Below, in pieces: positions 1 to 8,969 of a stretch of 8,969 bases of DNA. Numbering within the stretch: the first letter of the stretch is position 1; every line of letters starts with the position of its first letter. The notes under the pieces were generated by a model. That model was not told the origin of the DNA. It saw only the letters and a list, made by a program, of their open reading frames with translations, and ran no database searches. Location: IMG/VR virus record IMGVR_UViG_2681813269_000011. The stretch is one strand, 5' to 3'. The translations under genes and the position numbers were made by a program. This stretch comes from a virus (lineage: Duplodnaviria; Heunggongvirae; Uroviricota; Caudoviricetes).

Positions 1-1630
1 CCTTCACGCCGTCGGTGACGGACTGGACCTCCACGCTGACCGGATTCCCCTGCCCGTCAACCAGGCTTATCAGCGTGGTGCCGGAGGATGGCAGCGTGAT
101 TTCACGGTCGAGCGTCAGCGTCCGGGTCTGGCTGTTTACCGCCAGCACGCGCCCGCCGATGCGGATACCGGCATAGTCATCATCGCAGATTTCAATGACA
201 TCGCCCGGTACATGACGAAGCCCTTCAGCACCCACGCTGAAATCCACGGTCTGCGTCTCCAGCAGTTCCGTTTTAATCAGCCACAGCCCGGCGCGGTGTG
301 CCTGCCCCCGGCTGGTACAGCCAAAGGCATCCATCTTCGTGACGTTACGACCGTAACGGGCAATGGCCTGCGTGTCCTCCACAAGCTCTGTTGCCGTCTC
401 CCAGCCGTTGTTCGGGTCAATCCAGTTCACCTCAACGGCATTATGGCGGTCTTTCAGGGCGCTGAAACTGTAGCGGAACGGCGCGCCATCATCCGGCATC
501 ACCACATTACTGCGGTTATAGGTCCACACCTTATCCGATGGTCGGTCCTGCACGAACGTCAGCGTCTGCCCGTTCCATACCGGCATACAGCGCATCGCCG
601 AGCAGAAATCACTGAGCACATCCCACGCCTTACGCTGTGTGGTCAGGTACGCATTACAGGTGATGCGCGGCTCCGTGCCGCCAAAACCGTCCGGCACCGA
701 CTGGTCACAGTACTGGCCGATGACATACAGCGCCCATTTATCCACATCTGCCGCACCAAGACGTTTCCCCATGCCGTAGCGCGGATGGGTCAGCATATCC
801 CACAGACACCAGGCCATGTTGTTGCTGTATGCCGGTTTAAACGTCCCGTCCCAGATACCGCTGTATTGCCGCGTCTGCGGGTTATAGTTCGACGGCACCT
901 GCAGAATGCGCCCGCGAAGATGATAATTACGGCTCACCTGCTGGCTGCCGAACTGCTCCGAATCCACCTGCACGCCGACCAGTGCCGTGTTCGGGTAGCA
1001 CTGTTTCACATCGATGATTTCGGTGTATGACGACCAGAGCGTTTTGTTCTGCAGCTGGTCTGTGGTGCTGTCCGGTGTCATCCTGCGCATCCGGATATTA
1101 AACGGGCGCGGCGGCAGGTTATCCACCACCACCGAGGCCAGATACTGCGACGTGGTTTTGCCCTTAATGGTGATGTCTTTTTCTGTCACCCAGCCACCGT
1201 TACGTTGTATCTGAACCAGCAGGCGGACTTCCGACGGATTCCGGTCACCCTTTGAGGTGGTTTCCACCAGTGCCTGCACACCGAAGGTAAAGCGCAGACG
1301 GTCGATGTTTGCAGACGTGATGGTCCGGGTGATCGGCGTGTCGTATTTCACTTCCGTACCCAGCACCGTCTCGGAGCCGGAGGATTCAAATCCCTCCGGC
1401 GGTGACTGCTCCTGCTCACCGGCCCGGAACACCACCGTGACGCCGGATATATTGGTATTCCCCTCACTGTCCAGCACCGGCGTACTGTTCAGCAGCACGC
1501 TTTTTAATCCATCCACCGGACCTTCAACCGGCCCTTCGCTGATGGCATCGATCACACTCAGCAGCTGCGTGGACTTCAGGTTGTCCTTCGCTTCGCGCGG
1601 GGTATGCCCCTTACTGCTGCCTTTACCCAT
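1..1630 (-). CDS. J: Tail-tip host-specificity protein J, copy A, N-terminal 543 codons; 3' end continues beyond the left window edge
   Basis: ATG at 1628-1630 (minus strand) with GGAG 8 nt upstream (ctcc at 1639-1642 on plus). Collinear with copy B at offset 2764. I hand-checked this frame from 1031 to position 2 and found no stop. Absent from the ORF track because no stop lies inside the window. Carries allele [11 protein letters not shown] like copy C, not ISTGG like copy B. Confidence 0.85.
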   Translation of the reverse strand, partial: MGKGSSKGHTPREAKDNLKSTQLLSVIDAISEGPVEGPVDGLKSVLLNSTPVLDSEGNTNISGVTVVFRAGEQEQSPPEGFESSGSETVLGTEVKYDTPITRTITSANIDRLRFTFGVQALVETTSKGDRNPSEVRLLVQIQRNGGWVTEKDITIKGKTTSQYLASVVVDNLPPRPFNIRMRRMTPDSTTDQLQNKTLWSSYTEIIDVKQCYPNTALVGVQVDSEQFGSQQVSRNYHLRGRILQVPSNYNPQTRQYSGIWDGTFKPAYSNNMAWCLWDMLTHPRYGMGKRLGAADVDKWALYVIGQYCDQSVPDGFGGTEPRITCNAYLTTQRKAWDVLSDFCSAMRCMPVWNGQTLTFVQDRPSDKVWTYNRSNVVMPDDGAPFRYSFSALKDRHNAVEVNWIDPNNGWETATELVEDTQAIARYGRNVTKMDAFGCTSRGQAHRAGLWLIKTELLETQTVDFSVGAEGLRHVPGDVIEICDDDYAGIRIGGRVLAVNSQTRTLTLDREITLPSSGTTLISLVDGQGNPVSVEVQSVTDGVK

Positions 1631-1640
1631 TCGTCATGCT

Positions 1641-1672
1641 CCATAAACGACAAAACCGCCCGGAGGCGGTTT
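1641..1672 (-). terminator. Terminator-like hairpin in I-J intergenic region (copy A): stem aaaccgcc/ggcggttt, 4-nt loop, then TTTTGTCGTTT on minus strand
   Basis: Stem 1653-1660 pairs with 1665-1672; the minus-strand transcript would read AAACCGCC-UCCG-GGCGGUUU-UGUCGUUUAUGG, running into the J Shine-Dalgarno. Short GC core (5 bp), so terminator function is uncertain. Confidence 0.3.
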
Positions 1673-1690
1673 CACATAAAACATTTTGCA

Positions 1691-1705
1691 TCAGCGACCA
1701 ATCAC
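1691..1705 (-). pseudogene. I: Orphan remnant of I: last 4 codons plus stop (VIGR*), cut off at breakpoint 1705/1706
   Basis: Minus strand reads gtg att ggt cgc tga, identical to the end of intact I (4455-4469); upstream sequence (1706 onward) is unrelated in this orientation. Confidence 0.6.
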
Positions 1706-1914
1706 TGGCACCGAAAGCCAGAACTCCCCGTACACAGACAACGGATAACGGCAAACAGAACACCTATTTCTCCTCACTGGATAACATGGTTGCCCAGGGC
1801 AATGTTCTGCCGGTTCTGTACGGTGAAATGCGCGTGGGGTCACGCGTGGTTTCTCAGGAGATCAGCACGGCAGACGAAGGGGACGGTGGTCAGGTTGTGG
1901 TGATTGGTCGCTGA
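1706..1914 (+). pseudogene. I: I 3' fragment (about the last 69 codons) in inverted, plus-strand orientation
   Basis: Plus-strand translation ends ...APKARTPRTQTTDNGKQNTYFSSLDNMVAQGNVLPVLYGEMRVGSRVVSQEISTADEGDGGQVVVIGR*, the C-terminus of the intact I at 4455-4663 on the opposite strand. Lacks the I start; ORF-track ORF 1636-1914 begins at an ATG in antisense intergenic DNA. Confidence 0.85.
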
Positions 1915-1932
1915 TGCAAAATGTTTTATGTG

Positions 1933-1964
1933 AAACCGCCTCCGGGCGGTTTTGTCGTTTATGG
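1933..1964 (+). terminator. Inverted copy of the I-J intergenic hairpin, now on the plus strand upstream of the plus-strand J fragment
   Basis: aaaccgcc (1933-1940), loop tccg, ggcggttt (1945-1952), then tgtcgtttatgg; mirror image of 1641-1672. Confidence 0.3.
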
Positions 1965-1974
1965 AGCATGACGA

Positions 1975-2574
1975 ATGGGTAAAGGCAGCAGTAAGGGGCA
2001 TACCCCGCGCGAAGCGAAGGACAACCTGAAGTCCACGCAGCTGCTGAGTGTGATCGATGCCATCAGCGAAGGGCCGGTTGAAGGTCCGGTGGATGGATTA
2101 AAAAGCGTGCTGCTGAACAGTACGCCGGTGCTGGACAGTGAGGGGAATACCAATATATCCGGCGTCACGGTGGTGTTCCGGGCCGGTGAGCAGGAGCAGT
2201 CACCGCCGGAGGGATTTGAATCCTCCGGCTCCGAGACGGTGCTGGGTACGGAAGTGAAATACGACACGCCGATCACCCGGACCATCACGTCTGCAAACAT
2301 CGACCGTCTGCGCTTTACCTTCGGTGTGCAGGCACTGGTGGAAACCACCTCAAAGGGTGACCGGAATCCGTCGGAAGTCCGCCTGCTGGTTCAGATACAA
2401 CGTAACGGTGGCTGGGTGACAGAAAAAGACATCACCATTAAGGGCAAAACCACGTCGCAGTATCTGGCCTCGGTGGTGGTGGATAACCTGCCGCCGCGAC
2501 CGTTCAATATCCGGATGCGCAGGATGACACCGGACAGCACCACAGACCAGCTGCAGAACAAAACGCTCTGGTCG
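1975..2574 (+). pseudogene. J: J 5' fragment, codons 1-200, on the plus strand (inverted duplicate); ORF runs on into antisense J sequence to 2940
   Basis: ATG at 1975 with GGAG at 1963-1966; translation MGKGSSKGHTPREAKDNLKSTQLL...[11 protein letters not shown] is identical to the copy B N-terminus for 200 residues, then becomes antisense-derived sequence ([10 protein letters not shown]...). Confidence 0.85.
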
Positions 2575-4394
2575 CCGTCAAAGTGCGCCCCGTTATCCAC
2601 GATGGCTTCTTTTCCCGGTACATGCTGCACGGCAGTGATGGCATACGTGCCGTCATCGTTCTCACGGATACTCACGCAGCGGAACAGGCGCTGGCGCAGC
2701 GTCGGCAGCTTCAGCCCCCACACGCTGTATTCTGCAACGCCGTCAGGAACCCGGCTCACTTTCACCTTCACGCCGTCGGTGACGGACTGGACCTCCACGC
2801 TGACCGGATTGCCACTTCCGTCAACCAGGCTTATCAGCGTGGTACCGGAGGATGGCAGCGTGATTTCACGGTCGAGCGTCAGCGTCCGGGTCTGGCTGTT
2901 CACCGCCAGTACGCGACCACCGGTGCTGATACCGGCATAATCATCATCGCAGATTTCAATGACATCACCCGGTACATGGCGAAGCCCTTCTGCGCCCACG
3001 CTGAAGTCCACGGTCTGCGTTTCCAGCAGTTCTGTTTTAATCAGCCACAGCCCGGCGCGGTGTGCCTGCCCCCGGCTGGTACAGCCAAAGGCATCCATCT
3101 TCGTGACATTACGACCGTAACGGGCAATGGCCTGCGTATCCTCCACAAGCTCTGTCGCCGTCTCCCAGCCGTTATCTGGGTCAATCCAGTTCACCTCAAC
3201 GGCATTATGGCGGTCCTTCAGGGCGCTGAAGCTGTAGCGGAATGGTGCGCCATCATCCGGCATCACCACATTACTGCGGTTATAGGTCCACACCTTATCC
3301 GATGGTCGGTCCTGCACGAACGTCAGCGTCTGCCCGTTCCATACCGGCATACAGCGCATCGCCGAGCAGAAATCACTGAGCACATCCCACGCCTTGCGCT
3401 GTGTGGTCAGCCAGGCATTACAGGTGATGCGCGGCTCCGTGCTGCCAAAGCCGTCCGGCACCGACTGGTCACAGTACTGGCCGATGACATACAGCGCCCA
3501 TTTATCCACATCTGCCGCACCAAGACGTTTCCCCATGCCGTAGCGCGGATGAGTGAGCATGTCCCACAGACACCAGGCCATGTTGTTGCTGTATGCCGGT
3601 TTTAACGTTCCGTCCCAGATACCGCTGTATTGCCGCGTCTGCGGGTTATAGTTCGACGGCACCTGCAGAATGCGCCCGCGAAGATGATAATTACGGCTCA
3701 CCTGCTGGCTGCCGAACTGCTCCGAATCCACCTGCACGCCGACCAGTGCCGTGTTCGGGTAGCACTGTTTCACATCGATGATTTCGGTGTATGACGACCA
3801 GAGCGTTTTGTTCTGCAGCTGGTCTGTGGTGCTGTCCGGTGTCATCCTGCGCATCCGGATATTGAACGGTCGCGGCGGCAGGTTATCCACCACCACCGAG
3901 GCCAGATACTGCGACGTGGTTTTGCCCTTAATGGTGATGTCTTTTTCTGTCACCCAGCCACCGTTACGTTGTATCTGAACCAGCAGGCGGACTTCCGACG
4001 GATTCCGGTCACCCTTTGAGGTGGTTTCCACCAGTGCCTGCACACCGAAGGTAAAGCGCAGACGGTCGATGTTTGCAGACGTGATGGTCCGGGTGATCGG
4101 CGTGTCGTATTTCACTTCCGTACCCAGCACCGTCTCGGAGCCGGAGGATTCAAATCCCTCCGGCGGTGACTGCTCCTGCTCACCGGCCCGGAACACCACC
4201 GTGACGCCGGATATATTGGTATTCCCCTCACTGTCCAGCACCGGCGTACTGTTCAGCAGCACGCTTTTTAATCCATCCACCGGACCTTCAACCGGCCCTT
4301 CGCTGATGGCATCGATCACACTCAGCAGCTGCGTGGACTTCAGGTTGTCCTTCGCTTCGCGCGGGGTATGCCCCTTACTGCTGCCTTTACCCAT
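2391..4394 (-). CDS. J: Tail-tip host-specificity protein J, copy B, disrupted: authentic J residues 1-610 followed by 57 antisense-derived residues
   Basis: 667-aa ORF starting MGKGSSKGHTPREAKDNLKSTQLLSVIDAISEGP, which is the lambda gpJ N-terminus as I recall it. Matches J through ...GAHFDGDQS, then reads VLFCSWSVV..., which equals antisense ORF 1014-1214. Breakpoint within 2564-2574. Native RBS GGAG 8 nt upstream (ctcc at 4403-4406). Confidence 0.9.
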   Translation of the reverse strand: MGKGSSKGHTPREAKDNLKSTQLLSVIDAISEGPVEGPVDGLKSVLLNSTPVLDSEGNTNISGVTVVFRAGEQEQSPPEGFESSGSETVLGTEVKYDTPITRTITSANIDRLRFTFGVQALVETTSKGDRNPSEVRLLVQIQRNGGWVTEKDITIKGKTTSQYLASVVVDNLPPRPFNIRMRRMTPDSTTDQLQNKTLWSSYTEIIDVKQCYPNTALVGVQVDSEQFGSQQVSRNYHLRGRILQVPSNYNPQTRQYSGIWDGTLKPAYSNNMAWCLWDMLTHPRYGMGKRLGAADVDKWALYVIGQYCDQSVPDGFGSTEPRITCNAWLTTQRKAWDVLSDFCSAMRCMPVWNGQTLTFVQDRPSDKVWTYNRSNVVMPDDGAPFRYSFSALKDRHNAVEVNWIDPDNGWETATELVEDTQAIARYGRNVTKMDAFGCTSRGQAHRAGLWLIKTELLETQTVDFSVGAEGLRHVPGDVIEICDDDYAGISTGGRVLAVNSQTRTLTLDREITLPSSGTTLISLVDGSGNPVSVEVQSVTDGVKVKVSRVPDGVAEYSVWGLKLPTLRQRLFRCVSIRENDDGTYAITAVQHVPGKEAIVDNGAHFDGDQSVLFCSWSVVLSGVILRIRILNGRGGRLSTTTEARYCDVVLPLMVMSFSVTQPPLRCI

Positions 4395-4404
4395 TCGTCA
4401 TGCT

Positions 4405-4436
4405 CCATAAACGACAAAACCGCCCGGAGGCGGTTT
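4405..4436 (-). terminator. Terminator-like hairpin in the native I-J intergenic region, followed by U-rich tract overlapping the J RBS
   Basis: Stem 4417-4424 pairs with 4429-4436, loop cgga; on the minus strand this is followed by TTTTGTCGTTTATGG. Same element as 1641-1672. Confidence 0.3.
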
Positions 4437-4454
4437 CACATAAAACATTTTGCA

Positions 4455-5126
4455 TCAGCGACCAATCACCACAACCTGACCACCGTCCCCTTCGTCTGCC
4501 GTGCTGATCTCCTGAGAAACCACGCGTGACCCCACGCGCATTTCACCGTACAGAACCGGCAGAACATTGCCCTGGGCAACCATGTTATCCAGTGAGGAGA
4601 AATAGGTGTTCTGTTTGCCGTTATCCGTTGTCTGTGTACGGGGAGTTCTGGCTTTCGGTGCCAGCATCTGCGCCACACCACCGAGCACCATACTGGCACC
4701 GAGAGAAAACAGGATGCCGGTCATACCACCGGTCCCAATGGCTGCCCCCCATGCTGCAAGGGTGGCTCCGGCGGTAAAGAATGATCCGGCAATGGCGGCA
4801 GCCCCCAGGACAATCTGGAATACGCCACCTGACTTGGCCCCGGCGACTCTGGGAACAATATGAATCACAGCGCCATCAGGCAGAGTCTCATGTAACTGCG
4901 CCGTTAACCCGGACGTGCTGACGTCCCGCCCGGCAATCCGTACCTGATACCAGCCGTCGCTCAGTTTCTGACGAAACGCCGGGAGCTGTGTGGCCAGTGC
5001 CCGGATGGCTTCAGCCCCCGTTTTCACACGAAGGTCGATGCGGCGACCAAATCGTTGTAAATCCCCGTAAAGGCAGATGCGCGCCATGCCCGGTGACGCC
5101 AGAGGGAGTGTGTGCGTCGCTGCCAT
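4455..5126 (-). CDS. I: Tail assembly protein I (gpI-like, 223 aa)
   Basis: Intact 223-aa ORF MAATHTLPLASPGMARICLYGDLQRFGRRIDLRV...GGQVVVIGR matching lambda gpI as recalled, with Gly/Ala-rich hydrophobic central segment. Overlaps the K 3' end by 103 nt and lies 60 nt upstream of J. Confidence 0.95.
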   Translation of the reverse strand: MAATHTLPLASPGMARICLYGDLQRFGRRIDLRVKTGAEAIRALATQLPAFRQKLSDGWYQVRIAGRDVSTSGLTAQLHETLPDGAVIHIVPRVAGAKSGGVFQIVLGAAAIAGSFFTAGATLAAWGAAIGTGGMTGILFSLGASMVLGGVAQMLAPKARTPRTQTTDNGKQNTYFSSLDNMVAQGNVLPVLYGEMRVGSRVVSQEISTADEGDGGQVVVIGR

Positions 5127-5767
5127 TTGTCGGTGTACCTCTCTCGTTTGCTCAGTTGTTCAGGAATATGGTGCAGCAGCTCGCCGTCGCCGCAGTAAAT
5201 TGCGGCGTGATTCGGCACTGATGAACCAAAACAGCACAGCAGCACATCGCCCGGCTGTGCCGCTGACAACGGCACCTGATACAGCCCCGTCGCCTCCAGA
5301 TTATCCAGATAGAGATTCTGGCCGTTACGCCACCAGTCATCCTCACGATAAAAGTCCGGCATCTCAATCCCCGCCAGATGATAAGCATCCCGGAACAGTG
5401 TGTAACAGTCCGTCACACCGTGCTCAAAGCGCCGCCCGGTGAGATGCGGCACACAGCGGAACTTATGAATCGTCCCCCGGCAGACCAGCCACCACGGCAA
5501 ATCACTCTGCACCTGCAGCCGCCGGTCGGCCTCACTCAGCCAGGGCAGACCACCGGGGTGGCTGTGGACCAGCGCCACAATCTCACCCTGCATTTCTGCC
5601 TGCAGCCAGTCTTCCGGCGACATACGGAAATACGCCTCCGGCTCACCGGAGATATTCACGCAGGGAAAATATCTTTCCCCCTCCGGCGTGCTTACCACGA
5701 AGCCGCACGACTCCGCTGGCGCACATCGCCGGGCGTGCGCCAGAATCGCTGATTCTGTCTGTGTCAT
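5024..5767 (-). CDS. K: Tail assembly protein K (gpK-like) with JAMM/MPN and NlpC/P60 signatures
   Basis: 247-aa ORF MTQTESAILAHARRCAPAESCGFVV... with an exact JAMM motif H68-x-H70-x7-S78-x2-D81 (HSHPGGLPWLSEAD) and NlpC/P60-type Cys121 (GVTDCYTLF) and His187 (NHAAIY). Start is 5 nt after the L stop. Confidence 0.93.
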   Translation of the reverse strand: MTQTESAILAHARRCAPAESCGFVVSTPEGERYFPCVNISGEPEAYFRMSPEDWLQAEMQGEIVALVHSHPGGLPWLSEADRRLQVQSDLPWWLVCRGTIHKFRCVPHLTGRRFEHGVTDCYTLFRDAYHLAGIEMPDFYREDDWWRNGQNLYLDNLEATGLYQVPLSAAQPGDVLLCCFGSSVPNHAAIYCGDGELLHHIPEQLSKRERYTDKWQRRTHSLWRHRAWRASAFTGIYNDLVAASTFV

Positions 5768-5772
5768 GGGAT

Positions 5773-6471
5773 TTACTGCGAAAGTTTGTTAATGGAAAGG
5801 AAGCCGCCAAAGTTGCCGACGTTATTGCGGAACTTACAACCGCTCAGGCATTTGCTGCATTTATCCTTCGTGATATCGGACGTTGGCTGGTCATATTCAT
5901 CCGCGACAGCCGGACCGCTATAACCGCACTCGTCACCGCGATAGGTCCAGGTGCAGGTATTGGCCAGCATGATACGTCCCGGAAAAACAGCGCCATCCGT
6001 TTCCGTCGGCGTGGACAGTACAAAGGAGGCACTCACCGCGCTCAGTTCGCTGCACTGCTCAATGCGCCAGCGGCTGATCACCTCCTGCTCCGGATCGGCG
6101 TAACTGTTTCCGTTGACGAAGTTCACCGCATCCAGAAAACGGGCGTAAACCTTACGCCGGACCACCGTTCCGCCGACCAGACTCTGCAGATCTTCCGCCA
6201 TCCCGGTGACCATACCGTACAGGTTAGAAACCGTCAGCGTGGGGCGCGTACTGGTGCCTTTGCCATTCAGTTCAAAACCGCTCCCCTGAATGGGATACGG
6301 CTGATACTGTCGCCCCTGCCAGGTGACCGGCTCACCTTTTTCGTTCTGCTCATTACAGAAAAAATAACGTTCTCCACCGACCTCTGTCAGGTCGATTTCC
6401 CAGAGCACCACGCTGGCCGACTGCTCCGCACGGGTGCATTCATTCAGTGTTTCCTGCCGGATATCCTGCAT
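5773..6471 (-). CDS. L: Tail tip protein L (gpL-like, 232 aa)
   Basis: 232-aa ORF MQDIRQETLNECTRAEQSASVVLWEIDLTEVGGERYFFCNEQNEKGEP... ending in the Cys-rich motif DKCSKCLSGCKF, matching lambda gpL as recalled. ATG overlaps the upstream stop by 1 nt (TGATG); AGGTGG lies 7 nt upstream. Confidence 0.95.
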   Translation of the reverse strand: MQDIRQETLNECTRAEQSASVVLWEIDLTEVGGERYFFCNEQNEKGEPVTWQGRQYQPYPIQGSGFELNGKGTSTRPTLTVSNLYGMVTGMAEDLQSLVGGTVVRRKVYARFLDAVNFVNGNSYADPEQEVISRWRIEQCSELSAVSASFVLSTPTETDGAVFPGRIMLANTCTWTYRGDECGYSGPAVADEYDQPTSDITKDKCSKCLSGCKFRNNVGNFGGFLSINKLSQ

Positions 6472-6516
6472 CAGTTCACCACCTGTTCAAACTCTGCGCT
6501 GAACTCAACACGCAGC
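6471..6516 (-). pseudogene. M: M 3' remnant, last ~15 codons only ([14 protein letters not shown])
   Basis: Minus-strand frame ending at TGA (6471-6473) reads ...[14 protein letters not shown], which I recall as the C-terminus of lambda gpM (109 aa). Homology stops abruptly at about 6516/6517, where J-derived sequence begins in another frame. Boundary is +/-3 nt because it is inferred from the protein. Confidence 0.6.
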
Positions 6517-8969
6517 AATGGTGGGGGCCGTCAGGCGTTTCAGGAACACGTCGTTCATGAATATCTGATCGCCCTGACCAACAAACATCGGTTTTGTGTT
6601 GCCATTCGCAGGATTAACCATCGCAATCCTGTCCGCCGCCAGCAGCACCTGACTCTGCATGCCGTCAGGGGTGTTCTCAATACCGGCACCAATACCCGCG
6701 ATATAAAGGCGTCCGTCCTGCATCTGCTGCAGCTTCACAGCCCACATGCTGTTCAGGTTATTATTTGTATCAACCTGAACCTTCTGTATCTGCTGAATTG
6801 CCGCACTCTGGTCTTCCAGTTTCTTATTGACGGTCTGCGTGATTTCATTGCTGACATCCGTAATGGACGTCCTGATTTCAGCCAGGTCAGGCGCAAGCTG
6901 ACCGTTATCAATCTGCGTCCACAGCTCCTGAGCCAGATGGGTTTTCCCTATCTCGCCTTTGAAAAAATCCAGATAGCCGGATGCATCATCACTCGGCTGA
7001 CCAACAGCCTCCACGAATGCCGATTTGCCAACGGTGTTCACACTGCGAACGTAAAAATAATAATCATGGCCCGGTTTGATATTGATACTGGCGGCTATCC
7101 AGTACAGCGCCGTGCCAAGATAGCGGGCTGTGGTTTCAACCTGCCTGATATCGGTAATCCGCTTTTCCGAGAACCAGAACTCAAACTGTACCGTCGGGTC
7201 ATAAACGGCAAGATGCGGCGTGGCGGTTATCTGAAAATAGCCCGGCGTCAGCTCAATCCGCGACGGCACTGCAGGTGCGGCAATCCGGAACGATACCGAT
7301 GCCGGATCGCCCTGCTGCCCCCACGCATTTACCGCCCGGACTGTCAGCCTGTAGTTCCCCAGCGCCAGCTGCCTGAAGCGGTATGCGGTTTCCGCCGTCC
7401 GGGCCGTGCTGACCAGCCGCTCACTGCCGTCATCCGCTGCCACGGTCAGGCGAAGCAGGAAACTCACGCCCTTCACCACCTTCGGCGTGTCCCAGCGGGC
7501 CAGTACCTGATACTCCCCGCTGTCTGCGGTGACTTCGGCAGTCAGGTGCTGTACCGCTGGCGGCGTGACACCATTCACCGTGCCGCTCTGGTCGCCGTCA
7601 AAGTGCGCCCCGTTATCCACGATGGCTTCTTTTCCCGGTACATGCTGCACGGCAGTGATGGCATACGTGCCGTCATCGTTCTCACGGATACTCACGCAGC
7701 GGAACAGGCGCTGGCGCAACGTCGGCAACTTCAGCCCCCACACGCTGTATTCTGCAACGCCGTCAGGAACACGGCTCACTTTTACCTTCACGCCGTCGGT
7801 GACGGACTGGACCTCCACGCTGACCGGATTGCCACTTCCGTCAACCAGGCTTATCAGCGTGGTACCGGAGGATGGCAGCGTGATTTCACGGTCGAGCGTC
7901 AGCGTCCGGGTCTGGCTGTTTACCGCCAGCACGCGCCCGCCGATGCGGATACCGGCATAGTCATCATCGCAGATTTCAATGACATCGCCCGGTACATGGC
8001 GAAGCCCTTCAGCACCCACGCTGAAGTCCACGGTCTGCGTTTCCAGCAGTTCTGTTTTAATCAGCCACAGCCCGGCGCGGTGTGCCTGCCCCCGGCTGGT
8101 ACAGCCAAAGGCATCCATCTTCGTGACGTTACGACCGTAACGGGCAATGGCCTGCGTGTCCTCCACAAGCTCTGTTGCCGTCTCCCAGCCGTTGTTCGGG
8201 TCAATCCAGTTCACCTCAACGGCATTATGGCGGTCCTTCAGGGCGCTGAAGCTGTAGCGGAATGGTGCGCCATCATCCGGCATCACCACATTACTGCGGT
8301 TATAGGTCCACACCTTATCCGACGGTCGGTCCTGCACGAACGTCAGCGTCTGCCCGTTCCATACCGGCATACAGCGCATCGCCGAGCAGAAATCACTGAG
8401 CACATCCCACGCCTTACGCTGTGTGGTCAGGTACGCATTACAGGTGATGCGCGGCTCCGTGCCGCCAAATCCGTCCGTCACTGACTGGTCGCAGTACTGG
8501 CCGATGACATACAGCGCCCATTTGTCCACATCTGCCGCACCAAGACGTTTCCCCATGCCGTAGCGCGGATGGGTCAGCATATCCCACAGACACCAGGCCA
8601 TGTTGTTGCTGTATGCCGGTTTAAACGTCCCGTCCCAGATACCGCTGTATTGCCGCGTCTGCGGGTTATAGTTCGACGGCACCTGCAGAATGCGCCCGCG
8701 AAGATGATAATTGCGACTCACCTGCTGGTTACCGAACTGCTCTGAATCCACCTGCACGCCGACCAGCGCCGTGTTCGGGTAGCACTGTTTCACATCGATG
8801 ATTTCGGTGTATGACGACCAGAGCGTTTTGTTCTGCAGCTGGTCTGTGGTGCTGTCCGGTGTCATCCTGCGCATCCGGATATTGAACGGTCGCGGCGGCA
8901 GGTTACCCACCACCACCGAGGCCAGATACTGCGAAGTGGTTTTGCCCTTAATGGTGATGTCTTTTTCCG
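6505..8969 (-). CDS. J: Tail-tip host-specificity protein J, copy C; 5' end beyond the right window edge, 3' end cut at the junction with the M remnant; about codons 150-969
   Basis: Open minus-strand frame from the window edge to the stop at 6505-6507; collinear with copy B at offset 5020 and intact through the region where B is broken (...[27 protein letters not shown]...). Ends ...[15 protein letters not shown] then AAC*, where lambda gpJ as recalled continues TSGGNPPAF. Confidence 0.9.

Follow-up and report, generated by a model that had tools for sequence, protein, structure and literature searches.

An inverted join in the tail gene J of a Shigella sonnei draft contig is probably an artefact of short-read assembly

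Introduction

Rearrangements that place a copy of a sequence next to itself in the opposite orientation are represented in bacteria by the tandem inversion duplications (TIDs). The copies of a TID are identical at the time of formation, and these structures arise under selection for amplification. Both TIDs and short-junction duplications were reportedly described in Salmonella by Kugelberg et al. in 2010 (Genetics 185:65), and the Lovett laboratory is said to have worked on template switching at quasipalindromes in the context of Salmonella and E. coli. Inversion can also be programmed, as with the Gin, Pin and Cin invertases, whose crossover sites (gix, pix and cix) are 26 bp long. As for inverted joins of technical origin, inverted chimeras produced by MDA were reportedly the subject of work by Lasken and Stockwell in 2007.

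Chimeric reads at inverted repeats are also found in libraries prepared by sonication, where the repeats are at least 8 nt long and act in cis or in trans (PMC10908179). A different source of false joins is the software that turns reads into contigs. The Sanger pipeline passes from Velvet to SSPACE and on to 120 iterations of GapFiller at falling evidence thresholds; its improvement step takes only reads that are not in proper pairs, its authors call SSPACE and GapFiller greedy and capable of false joins, and their test assemblies contained 4–10 misassemblies each (PMC5320598). As for GapFiller, a gap counts as closed once the extensions from its two sides share 10 nt or more (the default) and the size agrees to within 50 nt (PMC3446322).

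The window analysed here is a stretch of 8,969 nt that makes up the entire contig CXNR01000286.1 of GCA_001256515.1, a short-read draft of Shigella sonnei whose numbering implies at least 286 contigs. How does it compare with the systems above? As in a TID, or in quasipalindrome switching, the order of its pieces is direct-inverted-direct; one junction is head-to-head and lies on a short inverted repeat, and a second one has a short microhomology. Unlike in a TID, its outer copies are 2.5–3.2% diverged, selection is not evident, a third junction of tandem type is present, and the arrangement is known from one draft contig. With the chimeric reads of sonication libraries (PDSM) and with the MDA chimeras, the window shares an inverted junction placed exactly on a natural inverted repeat and the lack of a biological consequence. 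However, those chimeras are low-frequency reads whose arms usually lie in one fragment, whereas the arms in the window are separated by 1231 nt and the join belongs to a 9-kb consensus contig. The false joins of SSPACE and GapFiller are alike in that they concern a short-read draft and multi-copy sequence, the 11 nt shared at the main join exceed the 10-nt threshold, and the duplicated piece is identical to other sequence in the same contig. They differ in that the use of this software for CXNR is presumed, and in that two further joins, which share 1 nt each, are left unexplained by it.

Composition of the window

The window was resolved into four pieces by self-comparison and by alignment to phage 21 and phiSTEC1575-Stx2k. 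Its genes are exclusively those of a lambdoid tail tip; the encoded domains are those of L, K, I and J only, and a recombinase gene is absent. All four pieces derive from a single 5-kb lambdoid M-L-K-I-J region, which extends from the end of M to J codon ~966:

1–1705, minus strand: segment A, with J codons ~544 to 1 (1–1630), the I-J intergenic region (which holds a terminator hairpin) and the 3'-terminal 15 nt of I
1705–2574, plus strand: inverted segment, with the 3'-terminal 210 nt of I, the I-J spacer and J codons 1–200
2564–6517, minus strand: segment B, with J codons 610 to 1 (2564–4394), followed by I, K, L and 47 nt from the 3' end of M
4455–5126, minus strand: I in segment B
5024–5767, minus strand: K in segment B
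5773–6471, minus strand: L in segment B
6471–6517, minus strand: last 47 nt of M in segment B
6517–8969, minus strand: segment C, with J codons ~966 to ~149, delimited by junction 3 and the contig end

Taken individually, each of these pieces is normal: more than 4300 complete E. coli genomes match each of the four collinearly over its whole length, and for segment B the identity reaches 98.2%. The alignment to phage 21 (locus L001) gives the same picture, as segment A is collinear with positions 4269–5973 and segment B with 4068–8020, while segment C matches 3001–5453. The gene called in segment A has Pfam matches to FNIII-A_GpJ and Phage-tail_3. What is abnormal is how the pieces are joined, with three such joins in 9 kb: two inverted (1705 and 2564–2574) and one direct (6517). 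The J gene in segment C, which the first-pass annotation had described as intact, turned out to be cut at both sides, because it runs only from codon ~149, at the contig end, to codon ~966, at the join at 6517.

Two minor features can be added to this description. The I-J spacer holds a GC-rich hairpin, AAAACCGCCCGGAGGCGGTTT, that carries a terminator annotation in phage 21 (L001 5918–5942); because of the duplications, it is met three times in the window (1650–1675, 1935–1960 and 4413–4438). The terminal bases of the contig, 8960–8969 (..TTTTTCCG), diverge from copies A and B (..TTTTCTGTCACC), and they may reflect either a contig-end error or a further paralogue.

The join at 2564–2574

The central join, junction 2, connects two parts of J that face each other, and it involves the following elements:

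2564–2574, inverted: junction 2, the 11-mer CGCTCTGGTCG common to J codons 197–200 on the plus strand and J codons 607–611 on the minus strand
7584–7594: native 11-mer, J codons 607–611 of segment C
8815–8825 (segment C), 3795–3805 (segment B) and 1031–1041 (segment A): native inverted partner, J codons 197–200
2391–4394, minus strand: chimeric open reading frame of 667 aa, with J residues 1–610 followed by 57 residues from the antisense of J codons 200–143; annotated as CTD34257.1

The first-pass annotation had located the breakpoint exactly on an 11-bp inverted repeat that J itself contains, and the sequence bears this out. The 11-mer CGCTCTGGTCG occurs at 2564 and at 7584, and its reverse complement at 1031 and 8815, so that both partners are native to J; a further reverse-complement site, at 3795 and thus inside copy B itself, was absent from the earlier list. 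On recounting, the shared sequence is exactly 11 nt long and is flanked by mismatches on both sides. This can be followed in the side-by-side alignment, where native J on the plus strand reads ...AAAACGCTCTGGTCG/TCATAC, native J on the minus strand reads ...CGTGC/CGCTCTGGTCG/CCGTCA, and the window across the junction reads ...AAAACGCTCTGGTCGCCGTCA. The codon positions were also correct: the residues TLWS begin at J residue 197, and J 197–200 of the plus strand meets J codon 610 of the minus strand. The same is true of the consequence drawn for copy B, whose reading frame in CXNR01000286.1 consists of 610 residues of J and 57 others, 667 aa in all. The exact 667-aa protein, CTD34257.1 of Shigella sonnei, is recorded on that single contig.

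How unusual is an inverted repeat of this length? The native 5-kb unit contains seven inverted pairs of 11 nt or longer, where ~4.6 would be expected from random sequences generated with a first-order Markov model of the unit's nucleotide transitions, and 99% of these random sequences hold at least one such pair. The presence of an 11-nt inverted pair in J is unremarkable. As for the placement of the junction, the odds of landing on such a pair by chance are ~7 in 1.3 × 10^7 (roughly 1 in a million), and therefore the join was homology-guided.

The joins at 1705 and 6517

The other inverted junction of the window, at 1705, had been overlooked in the first-pass annotation. Together with the direct junction, it involves:

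1705, inverted: junction 1, where I on the minus strand, 15 nt from its stop, meets I on the plus strand, 210 nt from its stop; 1 nt (C) shared
1636–1914, plus strand: open reading frame of 92 aa over junction 1, CTD34248.1
6517, direct, tandem-type: junction 3, from the 3' end of M to J codon ~966; 1 nt (A) shared

The plus-strand segment enclosed by the two inverted junctions (1705–2574) is the exact reverse complement of copy B at 3795–4664, with 870 of 870 positions identical; compared with the corresponding part of segment A (1031–1705), its identity is 99.7%. The 92-aa frame at 1636–1914 occurs on CXNR01000286.1 only, and its product forms a singleton cluster among ~15 billion proteins.

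Divergence among the J copies

Segment A and copy B are 97.5% identical, and segment C is 96.8% identical to B and 97.6% identical to A. The three J copies differ by 2.5–3.2%; the differences are substitutions only and are clustered in blocks. Between B and C, 34 of the 44 differences fall at third codon positions, and the reading frames are open in all copies. From a divergence of this extent, located mostly at third codon positions, it follows that A, B and C are natural paralogues and not fresh duplicates.

The sequence shared by these paralogues surrounds the joins. Beside junction 2, the copies are identical for 135 nt to the right and for at least 115 nt to the left, and junction 1 sits within a stretch of 599 nt that is identical in A and B; the joins are embedded in inter-copy identical sequence that is longer than a short read. 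Given these identical flanks and the exact 870-nt inverted repeat, short reads whose inserts span a few hundred bases are unable to fix the layout of the contig, and its long-range order is therefore the outcome of the algorithm's choices.

When positions 1–1183, 2765–3947 and 7785–8967 are compared, the three copies appear as a block-wise mosaic, in which the odd-one-out copy switches every 50–150 nt. Nearly all of the mosaic sites are biallelic, and one is triallelic. Judged from the sequence, this pattern would be compatible with natural recombination among paralogues as well as with an assembler that mixed their reads. A search of the E. coli genomes and of 20 loci returned no exact natural parent of A, B or C, the best candidates having 97–98% identity, so that the segments may be natural S. 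sonnei alleles as well as assembler mosaics. One S. sonnei J paralogue, P0010 (WP_162772903.1), is an allele distinct from all three copies. It stops after codon 599 (...EAIVL), ~11 codons short of the breakpoint in the window, possibly through an insertion or a contig end.

Search for the joins in other genomes

The junction-spanning stretches were searched by megablast in 5,426 complete E. coli genomes, a set that excludes Shigella (which is no separate species in GTDB), and none of these genomes spans junction 1, 2 or 3. The GTDB representatives, IMG/VR and the JGI metagenomes contain no match to a 31-mer over junction 2 or to the exact patterns of junctions 1 and 3. As a positive control, the native sequence was found in at least 120 IMG/VR loci, and the native left flank is present in all 122 IMG/VR occurrences examined. 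At the protein level, the peptides over junction 2 in both frames were compared with 5.8 billion cluster representatives, none of which spans the junction; as the search covers representatives only, junction-bearing members of the large J clusters would stay hidden from it. Open reading frames that span joins 1 and 2 were found on CXNR01000286.1 alone. The joins are without counterpart in independent assemblies, while each of the joined pieces is normal.

It had also been suggested to search related prophage J genes for the same 11-bp pair and for rearrangements at it. The pair is common: of 22 related loci, 19 have it at a spacing of 1231 nt, and among the IMG/VR loci whose sequence extends to the partner site, 75 of 85 do. 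Rearrangement at this conserved pair, in contrast, was observed neither in ~15,000 J copies of complete E. coli genomes nor in the 122 IMG/VR copies, and the pair is therefore not a recurrent hotspot.

Origin of the joins

The explanation that we consider likely is that junction 2 is a technical artefact, born when a short-read draft was assembled over a multi-copy prophage, and not a rearrangement of the S. sonnei chromosome. This modifies the view put forward in the first-pass annotation, namely that the join bears the signature of microhomology-mediated strand switching, in vivo or during library preparation. The part of that view which stands is that homology guided the join; its restriction to physical switching does not. 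Since the 11-nt overlap satisfies the GapFiller rule, and the contig is a draft with three joins that cannot be phased, a computational join, or greedy extension via rare chimeric reads, explains the contig at least as well. That all three joins are unique is also easier to reconcile with such an origin than with physical strand switching.

Which software was involved? In the listed part of the accession data of the Sanger pipeline, S. sonnei accounts for 299 assemblies, which average 405 contigs, and the WGS prefixes include CXFG–CXFY, CXOG and prefixes beginning with CWW (PMC5320598). Among the entries listed in that accession table, the prefix CXNR does not appear. From the organism, the contig count and the prefix series, we infer that CXNR passed through this pipeline. 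No paper was found for ERP000568, the project of the listed CXF and CXO S. sonnei assemblies, which leaves the read length undocumented.

The course of events might be pictured as follows. S. sonnei carries several lambdoid J paralogues, 97% alike and with long identical stretches, and a de Bruijn assembler collapses or breaks such sequence. Paired-read scaffolding, and then greedy read-by-read gap filling, would walk through the repeat, and the 5' region of I-J would be re-synthesised a second time in the wrong orientation. The gap would be declared closed as soon as the extensions had at least 10 identical bases in common, which the native inverted 11-mer would supply. Assembling one set of reads twice would be expected to yield an inverted piece completely identical to copy B, as is observed.

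The merge threshold is reached at junction 2 (11 nt against at least 10) but not at junctions 1 and 3, where 1 nt is shared, and therefore the overlap rule accounts for junction 2 only. No documented behaviour of a scaffolder or gap filler that joins sequences bluntly was found, and junctions 1 and 3 probably need real chimeric molecules in the library, such as products of blunt ligation. In the likely pipeline, the gap filler receives only reads that are not in proper pairs, and the joins at 1705 and 6517 would therefore most plausibly have arisen when greedy extension ran along rare chimeric reads of the library. Taken together, we infer that the overlap rule or chimeric reads produced these particular joins. 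A counter-point to the artefact is that the direct-inverted-direct layout equals that of a genuine tandem inversion duplication.

An assembly artefact has to be weighed against accounts in which the chimera existed as a molecule. It could have been formed during library preparation, when single-stranded ends pair at inverted repeats in the course of end repair, when PCR switches template or when fragments are ligated bluntly, and then have been assembled faithfully. Junction 2 does lie on a natural inverted repeat longer than 8 nt, the single shared nucleotide at junctions 1 and 3 looks like blunt ligation, comparable inverted I/J chimeras exist on small contigs of unrelated short-read assemblies, and the reads admitted to the improvement step of the likely pipeline are enriched for aberrant pairs. 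Yet any specific chimera is normally very rare compared with ~100x of genuine coverage, and coverage cut-offs would remove it. Moreover, the two arms are 1231 nt apart, more than a typical fragment of 200–500 nt, which excludes pairing in cis and leaves pairing in trans only, and one contig would have to string together three chimeras. A purely library-borne origin is for these reasons unlikely, although it may overlap with the preferred explanation, to the extent that chimeric reads seeded the greedy extension. The other physical account is that the contig faithfully shows an isolate-specific rearrangement of an S. sonnei lambdoid prophage, produced in vivo by a template switch or snap-back of the TID or MMBIR kind. 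The nascent strand, having reached J codon 610, would pair with the complementary strand at codon 200 by means of the 11-nt inverted repeat, copy back J 200–1 into I and switch forward again, with the tandem-type join at 6517 made in addition. The exact placement of junction 2 on an inverted microhomology speaks for it, as does the perfect match of the inverted piece with the 5' end of copy B, which intramolecular fold-back predicts. So does the layout, which, with microhomologies of 1, 11 and 1 nt, resembles the TIDs and short-junction duplications of Salmonella; and real microhomology deletions exist in J remnants (pin/J189, in three Logan runs).

What counts against such an event in vivo is, above all, the sequence of the flanking copies. 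The window has the topology of a TID, its head-to-head junction lies on a short inverted repeat and its inverted copy is 100% identical to B, but it lacks the triplication of identical copies, as A is 2.5% and C 3.2% apart from B; the direct copies thus do not stem from one locus that was duplicated recently. Within 9 kb, three illegitimate joins would have had to arise independently and with no evident selection, the J copies of E. coli and IMG/VR surveyed above are free of rearrangement at the 11-mer pair, the junction reading frames are all confined to one draft contig, and the structure would be beyond short-read resolution even if it were real. We therefore hold a rearrangement in the bacterium to be improbable. 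Much further down the scale, with a probability close to nil, stands a programmed switch of the Gin, Pin or Cin invertase type, or a shufflon, that varies the tail-tip protein. J fragments do occur in both orientations, and related prophages encode Pin-type invertases downstream of their tail-fibre genes. However, the 11-nt repeat is unlike the 26-bp crossover sites, the event affects the N-terminal and central parts of J instead of the receptor-binding C-terminus, and neither orientation product was found in any other genome searched. This reading was excluded on three grounds: the window, with only L, K, I and J, has no recombinase; the event is non-reciprocal, with codons 1–200 duplicated and codon 611 onward lost; and the reading frame is destroyed. 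A palindrome caused by a missed adapter in long reads was ruled out as well, since the offsets of 1231 and 195 nt make the junctions asymmetric, and since the draft is in many contigs.

The choice between these explanations has practical implications. If the joins are artefacts, the mis-joined contig has put two chimeric proteins into the databases, namely CTD34257.1 (annotated as 'host specificity protein', 667 aa) and the 92-aa CTD34248.1 ('Tail assembly protein I'). More generally, microhomology where two pieces of a draft assembly meet does not count as evidence that strands switched in a cell, as short exact overlaps are also what gap-closing software uses to merge sequences. If the rearrangement did take place in vivo, the window would be a natural case of a type of event mostly known from laboratory selections. 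The gene hit would then be a defective prophage gene, and the effect would be limited to the truncation of one J paralogue, with no other effect evident.

Chimeric J genes in other assemblies

Inverted chimeras of I and J, with overlaps of 6–7 nt, are present on tiny contigs of other short-read assemblies; they are absent from the complete E. coli genomes. Three unrelated chimeric reading frames break J at one base (±3 nt), at codon ~189 and in the motif GGTGCTG/TCCGGCGTCATCC, 33 nt from the 11-mer of the window (L025, 1741–1746; L026, ~685–691; L027, ~5259–5262; in phage 21, L001 5332–5336). The partners at this site are diverse. One is codon 87 of pin, joined by a plain deletion in a Qin-like remnant that was seen in three Logan runs. 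Another is J codon 46 in sense, inverted and with a 6-nt overlap, and here the sense part is 100% identical to the prophage J of laboratory E. coli strains such as K-12 derivatives, J53 and C43(DE3). The last is I codon ~103 in sense, likewise inverted, with a 7-nt overlap. Finally, on two contigs of 528 nt (P0019) and 318 nt (P0027), J residues ~560–660 are fused to a fragment of a holin or of a small terminase, and these are further chimeric J junctions in short-read assemblies.
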